A DNA stretch of 43,624 nucleotides from positions 1 through 43,624 of IMG/VR virus record IMGVR_UViG_2869924733_000007, one strand, 5' to 3'. The stretch's first letter is position 1; each line of letters begins with the position of its first letter. Shown here piece after piece: positions 21,001 to 25,717 of the stretch. Made by a program: the position numbers. This DNA is from a virus (Duplodnaviria; Heunggongvirae; Uroviricota; Caudoviricetes).

Positions 21001-24000
21001 TGGCCGGAGCGCTGCACAGCGGGACAGGTAAAGTCAGCTATGTGGGCGGCAACAGCAAAAGTTCGGCGCTGTTCATCAGCCTGCTGAAGCGGCTTAAAGC
21101 GACATACCGTCGGGCGAAAACCATCACGCTGATCGTGGACAACTACATTATCCACAAAAGCCGGGAAACACAGAGCTGGCTGAAGGAGAACCCGAAGTTC
21201 AGGGGCATTTATCAGCCGGTTTACTCGCCATGGGTGAATCATGTTGAACGGCTATGGCAGGCACTTCACGACACAATAACGCGTAATCATCAGTGCCGCT
21301 CAATGTGGCAACTGTTGAAAAAAGTTCGCCATTTTATGGAAACCGTCAGCCCATTCCCCGGAGGCAAACATGGACTGGCAAAAGTGTAGCGGTATTAAGC
21401 GCAGCTATTTAGCATCCAGTAATCAGGTTAGCGAATTAACAATGTGGGTTAAACGACTGGTCAGTCAACTGAAAAAAGCTAAGCCTGACTGCAAATTACC
21501 GGAGAAGGCGATGGATTACCTGAAGCGAAATGGACTGATAAGCGTGGAGGATGTTTTACGATGACCTGGCCTGAAGCATTCACCACGGTAGGAATTGCAA
21601 TGGCGGTGGCGCTGGTTGTGTATTCGATTTGCCGCTGGGGGTAAGGTAAACCAGCCCCGAACGGGCTGGTAATTTAAAGAGGTAATTTGATGATGGCTGT
21701 CAGTGCGCCAACAGCAACGACGAGCATGCCACCAAATCTGACGGTCAGTTGCAGGCTGAGTTTGTCTATTTTTGCATCAAGGGCTGCAATGTCGTTTTTT
21801 AGTTCAGTTCTGACATCATTTAGGTCGCGCTTTGTGGCGACTTCTGCGGCTTCGTGAGAATCTTTCACTGCGGCAGATATAGCGCGCGCCTGAGCTGCCG
21901 GCATTCCTGCGGCTTCCAAGGTTTCGACGAACTTCAGTGTATCAAAATAGACCTGAGCCATGTTAAATCCTTCGTTGTTGGGGAATATTGTTAGTTTAGC
22001 CTGTAGTGGCTGTTGACGACAACGTTAATCCGGGGCTATATTCCTCACGCGCCAGCAAAATCTGGCGTCGGGATTGGCGTCCCGGATATCGAAATGAGGT
22101 GTACTGGCAATAGCGGACACTACCATTTGTTCTTTTTTTAAGCAGCCATCTGATGATATTGTTCCCTGAAGGCTGCCGGGGAGATATTCCCCAGACGAGA
22201 GTGACGACGCTGACGATTGTAGAAAATCTCAATGTATTCCCGTATTACTGAGATGGCTTCATCCCGGTTATTAAAACGATAGTGGCTCAGGCTCTCATTT
22301 TTCAGCGTTCCCCAGAAGCTTTCCATCGGAGCGTTGTCGTAACAGTTACCTTTACGCGACATTGATGTTTTCAGACCAAACTGCTCCTGTATGACCCGGT
22401 AATCGTATGCGCAGTACTGTGAACCTCGATCAGAGTGGTGGATTAGCCCGGCAGGTGGGCGCTGGCTCCTGAGCGCCATAAACAGGGCTTTACCTGTCAG
22501 CTCTTTTGTCATGCGCTCTCCCATGGCGTAGCCGACAATTTCGCACGTATAAACATCTTTGATGCCAGCGAGGTACAACCATCCCTCCTGTGTGGCAACA
22601 TACGTCAGGTCCGCCACCCAGACCTGATTTGGTGCTGTAGGAGCGAACGTCTGGTTCAGCAGATTTGGCGCAACTGGCAGATTGTGGTTCGGGTTCGTAG
22701 TCGCTCTGAACTTGCGTTTCTGCTTACAGCGTAGCCTTAGCTCCTTACGAAGACGTGCCAGTCGGTCACGACCAACGATGATGCCATTCTCTGCCAGCTC
22801 CGTCTGGAGCCGCCGGGTTCCATATGTTTCGCGAGTGCGGATATGGGCCACCTTAATCTCCAGTTTTAGCCGCTCATCACTTTGTTTTCTGTCTGAGGGT
22901 TCATGCTGTACCCGGTTGTAATAACCGCTCCTGGATACACCAAATACCTGACACATCGCTTCAATGGGAAATTGTTGTCGCCATTGTTCGATTAACGCGT
23001 ATTTTTCAGCGACTCCTGTGCAAAATACGCTGTTGTAGATTCAATCTGTCAATGCAACACCCCTTTCAATTATCTCTTTCGGTGTTTTGAACTTCAGTGT
23101 CTTTCTCGGTCTGTTGTTTAGCTGAGCAGCAACCAGATCTAGTTCATGTTGAGTATATTGGGCAAGACATGTCTTTTTAGGAAAGTACTGCCGAATTAGC
23201 CCATTTGTGTTCTCATTTGTTCCCCGCTGCCAAGGACTCTGAGGATCGCAGAAGTAAACTTTAACGCCGGTGCTGACAGTAAATTCTAGATGTCTGGCCA
23301 GTTCCATTCCTCTGTCCCATGTCAGTGATTTTCTGAGTTCTGACGGTAAACTCAGGAATTTGTCGGTAAGAGCCTGATTTACTGAGACAGAATCTTTGCC
23401 CCTGAGTCTAAGGATGATCGTATAACGTGATTTTCGGTCTACAAGTGTGGCTATATGAGAGTTTTTTGTACCTGAGACTAAATCGCCCTCCCAATGCCCC
23501 AGAGAGCGTCTGTTATCGATATTTCGGGAACGTTCGTGAATTGGTGTTCCGTTCACTATGTTAATCGTACCTCTTTCGCCTTTGCGGGTATGACGCCTGC
23601 CATGGCGAAGGCTATGCGACCGTCGCAGATGCTGTATATTCAGGTGGTGTAGCGCTTCACGGCTACGAAAGTACAGCGTTTTATAAATTGTCTCAGGTGA
23701 TATTCGCAGCGTTTTTTGACGTGGTTTTGTTCGCCTTAACCATCCTGATATTTGCTCTGGAGACCATTTCATCTCCAGCTTTTCCAGAACAAGCTTTCGC
23801 AATGGTAAATTTTGATCCAGTAAGCACGGTTTTGGCCTTTTCGCCATTCTGTTGGCTCGGTTATTAGCATCAACAGCTTTGTAATAGCGTCTGCCCCGAT
23901 TACGCTGAACTTCACGTGAGATCGTCGAAGGACTGCGATTCAGCGCAGTAGCTATCGCACGAATGCTCATTTTGGCTGACAAACCAGCTCGTATCTCCTC

Positions 24001-25717
24001 GCGCTCAGACAGTGTCAGGTGAGCTACAGCCCGCTTACGCTCATGGGGTTTTATGCCGCCAGTATCCCTTAACATAGTGAAGATCGTTCCGGGTTTTGAA
24101 CCCAGGATATTCGCTATTTCACTGAAGCCTGTTCCGTTCTTCCATAGTTCAAAAACAGAGGCTTTTTCCTCTGCTGTAAATGTTCGTCTCATTCAAAAAA
24201 CCTCCGCAACCCCATGTTTTCACATAACTGTTGCGTTGACCAATTGAATCTACAGTTGCTTTTTTTAATATATCTCGCTCAAGGCGAGCTTCATTTAACG
24301 CCTTACGCAGTTGCAGAATTTCAGATTCCAGTTCAGCCACCGTGCGGGAACCAGGAGTACCGAGTCCTTTTCTGGCGGCGGTAACCCATTGTCCTAAAGT
24401 GCCTTCAGGAAGGGATAATCGGGAAGCGCCTTCACTGATCGAAAGTTGATTTTCAAGAACCGTTCTGACAGCTTCGGCTTTGAACTCTTTAGAGTAACGT
24501 TGGGTTTTTCTGCTCATTATTAGCTCCTTCTGATGCCATTCTATTTCAGGAAGGAGTGTCCGTTAAACTCAGGCTACCTCAAAACGGTGCATAACCGCGC
24601 TGGCGGTTTTTTTATGCGCTAAGCACAGTCACATTCGCGATTTATGGTGGGCTGTGTGGGGGAGTTGAGAGACTCGCCGGATGTTTCGACCGGTTACGCC
24701 AACCCTGCACAGTTCACCACCCAGCGATTGGCGTCGCAGGTGGTGAGTTAAAAACCATCGAAACGCGAGGTCGTTATGACTGTTCAGATTTCTGTCAAAA
24801 ACCTTTCCCCTGTTACCTATAACCAGATTCCTGTTATTACCACCGAACTTTTGGCGCAGCTTTACGGCACTGAGCCGGTGCGTATTCGCCAGAATCATCA
24901 TGAGAACAAAGTACGCTTCGTTGAAGGGAAACACTTTTTCAAAGTTGTTGGTAATGACCTTAAAGAATTGCGGGTAGCTTTAAACTACTCACAAAATCCC
25001 ATCTCTCCCAAAAACCGCTCCCTCATTCTCTGGACAGAACGCGGCGCAGCCCGCCACGCAAAAATGCTCGAAACCGATCAGGCGTGGGATGTGTTCGAAA
25101 AACTGGAAGACTGCTATTTCAGTCAAAAGGAGCCGTCAACGCCAGTTTCATGCCAGAAAAGTTACGACACGCGAGTTCTCTGTTATCAGCAAGGCGGTGT
25201 CACTGTTTCCACAATTCAGTTGCGGGATGATGATATTGTTATTTCCCTTGAGTCATGGCTGGAACTGGCGAGAGCCAATGGTTGGTTTGTTGTTCGCAGA
25301 GATAAACTGGTGGAAAGGCTGATGCAGCTTTAAAAAGTTCTTGCAATTTTAGCCATAAACTGCTTCAATTCTTGTACGCTTCGCAAAGCTGTACCGCGAG
25401 GCGAATAGCAGACATGGACATTTGAAAGAGCCCGCTTTATGCGGGTTTTTTTATACCTGAAAAACGGCACAGGACGTTAAACGTGCTGGTGGTCAGATGA
25501 GTTTGCAGATGTGATGACATATGGTTATTATTCTGCCTCCGGCCCTTTAGCTCAGTTGGTCAGAGCGAGCGACTCATAATCGCCAGGTCGCTGGTTCAAG
25601 TCCAGCAAGGGCCACCAACCACCACTAGCTCATCCGGATAGAGCATCAACCTTCTAAGTTGACGGTGCGAGGTTCGAGTCCTCGGTGGTGGGCCAGCGCC
25701 GACTTAGCTCAGCAGGC

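Follow-up and report, generated by a model that had tools for sequence, protein, structure and literature searches.

What regulates the ORF6N-type gene at 24776-25333 of this prophage? The window, meaning the whole 43,624-nt stretch of the Caudoviricetes record IMGVR_UViG_2869924733_000007, was read on the + strand over 21700-25800, where a promoter, short repeated boxes and a small RNA gene precede the ORF6N-type gene. The sequence-only reading had named this region module B and proposed that it is a c4-like module preceding an ORF6N gene, and matches to Rfam C4 and c4-a1b1, Pfam ORF6N and PHROG 2379 bear it out. The region is very probably a P1 immI-type (c4) translational control module of the same kind as isrK-'orf45'-anrP of Gifsy-1. 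Sequence comparison establishes its anatomy, its family membership, the covariation of its boxes and of the c4 stems, an interrupting insertion sequence (IS), and a recombinant origin.

Rfam covariance models were scanned over the window at their curated gathering thresholds. C4, c4-a1b1 and isrK all exceed their gathering scores in module B, as C4 and isrK do in a second copy of the system, module A. Every element that had been listed for module B was found at its coordinates when checked against the sequence. The parts are as follows.
22013-22042, + strand: sigma-70-like promoter TTGACG-18-TATATT, 10/12 score in the promoter scan
22036-22088, + strand: leader RNA, c4-a1b1 (RF03163, 52.9 bits versus a threshold of 46.7) plus the 5' half of isrK (RF01394)
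22049-22138, + strand: nominal isrK match (RF01394, 52.4 bits versus 50)
22049-22068, + strand: leader hairpin 1, with a CGCCAG/CTGGCG stem at 22050-22067
22069-22084, + strand: leader hairpin 2, CGGG-ATTGGCGT-CCCG, whose loop is box a1
22072-22081, + strand: box a1, GATTGGCGTC, intact in the loop of hairpin 2
22086-22094, + strand: 5' part of box b1, ATATCGAAA, with ATCGAAA at 22088-22094 and the final AAA being the left copy of a target duplication
22095-24581, - strand: IS3-family (IS600-like) element with a nested IS30-family element, 2487 bp, copy 3 of 5
24582-24590, + strand: 3' part of box b1, AAACGGTGC, including the right AAA copy
24585-24613, + strand: intrinsic terminator of the leader small RNA (sRNA), the 3' half of isrK (model positions 48-77)
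24640-24724, + strand: c4 antisense RNA gene, C4 (RF01695, 68.7 bits versus 45; model positions 1-87, full)
24683-24689, + strand: b', GTTTCGA, in the loop of the second c4 hairpin
24696-24702, + strand: a', ACGCCAA, a single-stranded c4 segment
24726-24735, + strand: target box a2, GATTGGCGTC, a second copy of the a1 sequence
24757-24765, + strand: target box b2, ATCGAAACG, ending 2 nt before GAGG
24767-24770, + strand: Shine-Dalgarno GAGG, serving the ATG at 24776
24776-25333, + strand: ORF6N-domain anti-repressor-family gene, 185 amino acids, intact, an AnrP homologue by Pfam, PHROG and identity to STM2616

No other + strand site in 21900-24900 resembles a promoter, and this one corresponds to the promoter of isrK and of the P1 c4 operon. 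Position 1 of the isrK model, the mapped IsrK start in Salmonella, aligns at 22049, 7 nt past the -10 element. The terminator-like hairpin consists of a stem at 24593-24608 and a T run. The c4 of module B (c4-B) folds into a 17-bp outer stem, an inner hairpin, a second hairpin with b' in its loop, and a single-stranded a'; its a' and b' form helices of 7 and 8 bp with a2 and b2 at the ribosome-binding site. The gene product matches Pfam ORF6N (PF10543, E=2e-20) and PHROG 2379 'anti-repressor' over residues 1-185 of 187 (E=1e-91), and is 52% identical over its full length to STM2616 (AnrP; E=7e-61). The protein belongs to the antirepressor family and, judged by these homologues, would act as an antirepressor. 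Module B is of a known, catalogued kind, covered by three Rfam families and studied experimentally as IsrK in Gifsy-1.

The nominal isrK match does not describe a continuous RNA. The model is really split between the 5' hairpins (22049-22084) and the terminator half (24585-24613), which lies 2.5 kb off and scores 21 bits alone, and the match end at 22138 is spurious, a U run inside the IS being borrowed as the 3' tail of the model. In the intact relatives L004 and L059 isrK scores 77.8 bits. The leader proper keeps a1 intact in its second loop, and the IS severs b1 after ATCGAAA. The isrK match at 22049-22138 is an example of a gathering-score match that spans an insertion junction.

Covariation of the boxes was analyzed in relatives. 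A search of viral contigs with the terminator pattern common to modules A and B recovered 118 loci, and 44 distinct modules could be parsed from them; L001 and L015 (ATGG within b2) and L064 (a genuine hybrid with a mismatched a1) parsed poorly. Across these 44 modules a1/a'/a2 change together and so do b1/b'/b2, so the complementary boxes picked out in module B do covary in homologous loci. The median cognate helix is 7 bp for a1, 7 bp for a2, 8 bp for b1 and 11 bp for b2, versus 3-5 bp for non-cognate pairs. Six variants of a' and eight of b' (about 7 types) occur in 14 a-b combinations. The a-series pairs are ATTGCTAC/GTAGCAA, CGTGGAAA/TTTCCAC, ATTAGCAC/GTGCTAA, ATTGGAAC/GTTCCAA and, as in module B, ATTGGCGT/ACGCCAA. 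Taken singly, the 7-8-mers occur in the window at chance frequency (against shuffles, ATTGGCGT 2 versus 1.6 expected and TCGAAAC 6 versus 6.9), as they would if the complementary boxes were a chance likeness in a decayed, IS-ridden prophage. The significance of the boxes lies in their position and in their covariation in relatives, not in their counts. Three-way covariation specific to position, three Rfam families above threshold and the same layout in P1-like and Gifsy-1 phages leave chance with next to no credence, and the covariation data already refute it.

The c4 fold covaries as well. RNAalifold applied to 16 distinct c4 sequences, including one P1-like, predicts the Rfam fold with 27 pairs, of which 11 show compensatory changes on both sides; only 2 cells in the 16 sequences are broken. 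Variation in the alignment columns coincides exactly with the b' loop and the single-stranded a'. An ATG at 24644 opens a 35-codon open reading frame (ORF) to 24751, and the conserved 80-nt element could on that ground encode a small protein instead of an RNA. That ATG has no Shine-Dalgarno sequence upstream, the substitutions in the element are paired across its stems, the C4 covariance score is 68.7 bits, and the IsrK paper reports conserved nucleotides with variable amino acids (PMC4825925), all of which make a protein-coding role for the element very improbable. A conserved peptide over c4 was rejected for the ORF6N group, where neither frame nor length is conserved.

Module A serves as the comparison for specificity and lies on the opposite strand.
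9994-10785, - strand: module A, with a Rha-family gene at 9994-10542
10597-10684, - strand: C4 of module A, 79.0 bits versus 45
10709-10785, - strand: isrK of module A, 64.8 bits versus 50
The two modules had been supposed to differ in specificity, and the predicted duplexes agree: cognate pairs range from -8.4 to -16.5 kcal/mol and cross pairs from -1.1 to -6.7 kcal/mol. At the level of prediction, hetero-specificity of modules A and B is supported.

The upstream box had been described as split by an IS, and this is what the sequence contains. The element occupies 22095-24581 within b1 and is flanked by a clean target duplication, AAA at 22092-22094 and AAA at 24582-24584. It encodes split parts of an IS3-family transposase with an IS30-family transposase nested between them. 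Excision of the IS plus one AAA restores ATATCGAAACGG, the intact b1 of L004, L020 and L047, and comparison with IS-free relatives finds L020 colinear with the window and without the insertion. The sequence-only reading had raised the possibility of IS-borne outward promoters. The scan detected none, at its threshold, at the c4-facing end of the IS, where the sole promoter-like site points into the IS (- strand), and the scan of 21900-24900 found no + strand promoter-like site between the IS and c4. The promoter at 22013-22042 and c4 are therefore 2487 bp of IS apart in the window; in L020 they would form one transcription unit. Because 2.5 kb of IS now part the promoter and a1 from the terminator, c4 and the gene, the c4 RNA and the ORF6N gene are most likely promoterless, and module B, cut off from its promoter, is probably silent in the window.

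Five compound copies of this element were recognized by their end sequences, each 2487 bp long.
3839-6325: compound IS copy 1
15111-17597: compound IS copy 2
22095-24581, - strand: compound IS copy 3
33880-36366: compound IS copy 4
40337-42823: compound IS copy 5
An artefactual origin of the five copies was rejected, as they differ by 2-5 substitutions. All of these substitutions lie in the IS600 parts; the IS30 part, nested at one fixed position, is identical throughout. The nested form spread by conversion, or else IS30 repeatedly struck the same spot. Copy 4 lacks a target duplication (its flanks are GTC and ACT), and this points to a rearrangement between IS copies. A plain 1264-bp IS600 occupies the site orthologous to copy 1 in L042 and L004. 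The prophage has more insertions, at 1705-2858, 18274-19497 and 20257-21409. IS630-type transposase genes (DDE_3, 343-amino-acid ORFs) lie in two of them, at 1726-2757 and at 20358-21389, and the remaining insertion has a DDE_Tnp_1 (IS4-like) transposase gene. L042 lacks the 1705-2858 insertion, and neither L004 nor L020 has the one at 20257-21409.

Module B had been taken as one module, which holds for its body (b1, c4 and the gene), all B-type, and fails for its promoter and flank, which derive from a neighboring module, here called C. Relatives L004, L042/L059 and L080 carry tandem ORF6N-type modules, C followed by B. The flank and promoter of module C are 100% identical to window 21410-22087, and the -35 element and spacer of the window promoter are of the module C type. 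Module C has its own terminator; its c4 matches module B in a' and carries b' TCCGTAC, the identity between its antirepressor-family gene and that of the window is ~76%, and a sok RNA lies downstream. Module B proper has another -35 element and spacer, and window 24579-26431 matches its body at 99.3% identity. The C and B leaders are identical over 62 nt, from CCGGGGCTATATT to CCCGGAT, and in L004 they start 3262 bp apart. The joining of a C-type promoter to a B-type b1, c4 and gene identifies the window as a recombinant without the inter-leader segment. Recombination within the shared 62-nt leader of tandem modules removed the segment holding the c4 and antirepressor genes of module C and sok. 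L020 is the same recombinant with no IS, colinear with the window at 99.56% over 3401 nt once the compound IS and the 20257-21409 insertion (which holds the IS630-type transposase gene at 20358-21389) are removed, and L092 carries the IS-bearing form. As the sequences order them, the events are tandem C and B modules, leader recombination, and then IS insertion. Scaffold recombination of the kind that produced this C/B hybrid may reshuffle promoters and boxes. The tandem of modules C and B, alike in their a boxes and unlike in their b boxes, is found in relatives at L004 3946-4700 and 7208-7406, at L042 7645-7846, and in L080. The RNA between modules C and B in relatives is a sok RNA of the hok/sok type, deleted in the window together with the rest of module C.

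How would such a module work when intact? Four parts of the answer, namely processing of the RNA, the block on translation, the sponge role of the leader and the activity of the antirepressor, are inferred from Gifsy-1, whose a boxes are identical, and from P1. In the intact form, represented by L020, a single promoter would transcribe a leader bearing a1 and b1. Most transcripts would end at the intrinsic terminator to give a short IsrK-type leader sRNA, and read-through transcripts would extend into c4 and the ORF6N gene. An ~80-nt c4 RNA would be excised from the read-through transcript, and its a' and b' would pair with a2 and b2 beside the Shine-Dalgarno sequence to block translation. The a1/b1 leader would compete for a' and b' of c4 and so relieve repression. 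The ORF6N product would then inactivate the short, non-cleavable helix-turn-helix (HTH) repressor encoded at 12068-12475. In the window the IS entered b1 after the leader recombination, placing 2.5 kb between the promoter with a1 and the terminator, c4 and gene. The repressor gene at 12068-12475 (- strand) encodes a 135-amino-acid HTH_3 protein with no self-cleavage or peptidase domain and 30% identity to the Gifsy-1 repressor; a repressor of this type fits antirepressor induction rather than RecA-mediated cleavage, as far as its sequence tells.

Published experiments on Gifsy-1 bear on these steps. There the promoter drives transcription without translation (4 units; Hershko-Shalev et al. 2016, PMC4825925). 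Mutations in a' raise expression to 484-926 units, more than 100-fold, and the leader sRNA supplied in trans lifts translation ~100-fold or more (PMC4825925). An ~80-nt processed RNA was detected, and AnrP induces the phage (PMC4825925). Hfq binding by IsrK and its trans-activation of the antirepressor gene are known from Gifsy-1 only. Counted from the isrK start, the published G28 and G31 mutations map in a1 and C159 and C162 map in a' as their exact antiparallel partners, and A107 of the same set is the A of the c4 5' AUGGUGG. The published 'helix b-I' is thus the a1-a' pairing, and 'orf45' with the ~80-nt STnc1160 is c4. The IsrK authors likened STnc1160 to the P4 CI RNA and left c4 unmentioned (PMC4825925), and IsrK and c4 have separate entries in a 2025 review. 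On balance, Gifsy-1 IsrK/orf45 and P1 c4 are likely to be one mechanism, with IsrK as the a1b1 sponge leader and 'orf45'/STnc1160 as c4.

The IsrK authors explain the same data differently, by an inactive structure formed in cis between the leader and 'orf45' and opened by the sRNA in trans, with a small ORF from the AUG of the c4 region coupled to the antirepressor and no separate antisense repressor. SPA-tagged orf45 is translated in Gifsy-1, start- and stop-codon mutants of it cut activation, and a1 mutations in cis derepress (PMC4825925); module A-type loci and the P1-like phage also keep the c4-AUG ORF free of stops and in the reading frame of the gene that follows. In module B, however, this ORF is 35 amino acids long and stops 27 nt before the gene start, and across the ORF6N group it runs in frame 0, 1 or 2, is mostly 27-35 amino acids long and is open into the gene in module C. 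This variation in frame and length rules out coupling through a conserved ORF as a general feature. The 'compensatory' double mutants of Gifsy-1 restore repression only 2-3-fold, to 224 and 327 units versus 4 (PMC4825925); a rescue this weak would follow from a need for a' to pair with a2 as well, which was left unmutated. A structure in cis does not require a2 and b2 to covary with a' and b', yet they do. The cis-structure model is on this evidence unlikely to account for the locus. In 29/29 distinct module A-type loci plus the P1-like phage, the c4-AUG frame continues without a stop and in phase with the Rha-type gene or icd (in the window at 10542-10680, - strand; in L119 at 1728-2087), and most ORF6N-type loci differ. 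This contrast between the module A/P1 and ORF6N frames may relate to the reported translation of Gifsy-1 'orf45'.

Several points weigh against control by c4 pairing, or against some part of the account given here. The IsrK authors themselves invoke cis structure and translational coupling with 'orf45', not c4-type repression (PMC4825925). In Gifsy-1 a1 mutations in cis also raise translation, and a pure decoy role of a1 predicts otherwise (PMC4825925). The covariation set is biased, since it was gathered through the terminator pattern common to modules A and B. NCBIfam has no model that matches the ORF6N protein of the window. Some c4 could still arise through weak read-through of the IS or from a promoter that scores under the scan threshold. 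With these points counted, c4-type translational control remains the reading very probably correct for module B.

The presence of modules A and B on a single lambdoid prophage had been singled out. The gene order (recE-like, module A, HTH repressor, cro, cII, O, DnaC-like, module B, tRNAs, lysis, terminase) fits a lambdoid prophage, and relatives likewise carry the modules together on one contig; the two-module arrangement is not special, because it recurs. Two c4 genes occur in 8/118 of the short viral loci, with further pairs on one contig in separate loci. One box is common and the other different in 4 of the 5 distinct two-c4 arrangements, and in the fifth (L009, L102 and L108) both differ. 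The L004 and L029 pairs have a' in common and the L118 pair has b' in common; the A plus C pair found on L042 and L080 has neither box in common. One-box sharing could reflect a requirement for both boxes in specificity or a tolerance of partial cross-talk. Lambdoid prophages may hold several modules each, with specificity set by a two-box combinatorial code, and if so, one-box sharing in tandem modules would allow orthogonal control or graded cross-talk.

The module is widespread. An IS-free query has matches in 916/5426 complete genomes of E. coli and in 279 phage records, chiefly Shiga toxin (Stx)-converting phages, and 'C4 antisense RNA' and 'isrK' are already annotated in one Stx2 phage record. 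The exact c4-B 29-mer has no match among representative genomes, one per species; this specificity is therefore absent from representative genomes. Rfam also matches SraC/RyeA and SdsR/RyeB at the left edge of the window, which places the prophage next to that chromosomal sRNA locus, as well as RalA (antitoxin RNA to RalR, which is a gene of Rac-type prophages) and CssrB, a Shigella sRNA; the four matches fall at 463-607, 3324-3502 and 40141-40323. These sRNA matches point to a host of the Shigella/E. coli lineage. Four tRNA genes (anticodons CAT, TCT, TGT and TCC; 25541-25851) come between the ORF6N gene, which they follow directly, and the lysis genes.

For the window genome itself the result matters little, as it adds one more decayed regulatory module to an IS-ridden, Shigella-type prophage. 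The same sequences tie three Rfam families and the experiments on P1 c4 and Gifsy-1 IsrK into what is probably one mechanism, and the relatives form a natural series of box specificities for probing the need for two boxes and the cross-talk of co-resident modules. The rules of c4 modules bear on the induction of pathogen prophages because the modules sit in many Stx-converting phages.

Four known systems were compared with module B. The immI region of P22 (sar, arc, mnt and ant), as mentioned in PMC3064807, is likewise a second lambdoid immunity region that silences an antirepressor, partly through an antisense RNA; its RNA and protein regulators are unrelated, and the likeness is functional only. 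The CI RNA of P4 (seqA/seqC) is also a small RNA processed from a leader, with pairing sites both upstream and downstream of itself, but CI acts by premature transcription termination of replication genes. No P4 CI sequence or Rfam match was seen in the window, where no search aimed at P4 CI was made.

In P1 immI the c4 antisense RNA blocks icd and ant expression (Citron & Schuster 1990, as cited in PMC8198154). The P1-like relative L119 has the same layout: promoter, hairpin, a1 GATTGGCCTC, b1, terminator-like hairpin, c4, a2, b2 at the icd Shine-Dalgarno sequence, and an ORF6N-type gene. Module B shares with P1 and P7 the c4 fold, specificity set by short a and b segments, and a downstream gene of the secondary antirepressor type with an ORF6N-type N-terminus. 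Unlike P1, module B has no icd, its b2 abuts the Shine-Dalgarno sequence of the antirepressor-family gene itself, and it sits in a lambdoid chromosomal prophage instead of a plasmid prophage. The P1-like leader of L119 falls below the Rfam isrK and c4-a1b1 thresholds. P1 c4 reportedly involves RNase P processing, to a product of about 77 nt, and Rho-dependent polarity, according to the Schuster laboratory.

In Gifsy-1 (NC_010392), on the - strand, isrK lies at 34316-34240, c4-a1b1 at 34329-34277 and C4 at 34214-34131, with the antiterminator Q upstream, STM2616 (AnrP) downstream and then a tRNA (tRNA-Arg) ahead of the lysis genes. Unlike Gifsy-1, no Q gene was identified upstream of module B in the window. 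The b boxes are TCACCG/CGGTGA in Gifsy-1 and TCGAAAC/GTTTCGA in module B; the c4-AUG ORF ends at the AUGA of the gene in Gifsy-1 and 27 nt short of the gene in module B; and module B is split by an IS and takes its promoter region from a neighboring module. Both loci have their parts in the same order and at a corresponding genomic position, tRNAs and lysis genes following in the window too, and a1, a' and a2 are identical (GATTGGCGTC / ACGCCAA). The antirepressor-family products are 52% identical over their full length, and the repressors are homologous 135-136-amino-acid HTH proteins with no cleavage domain.

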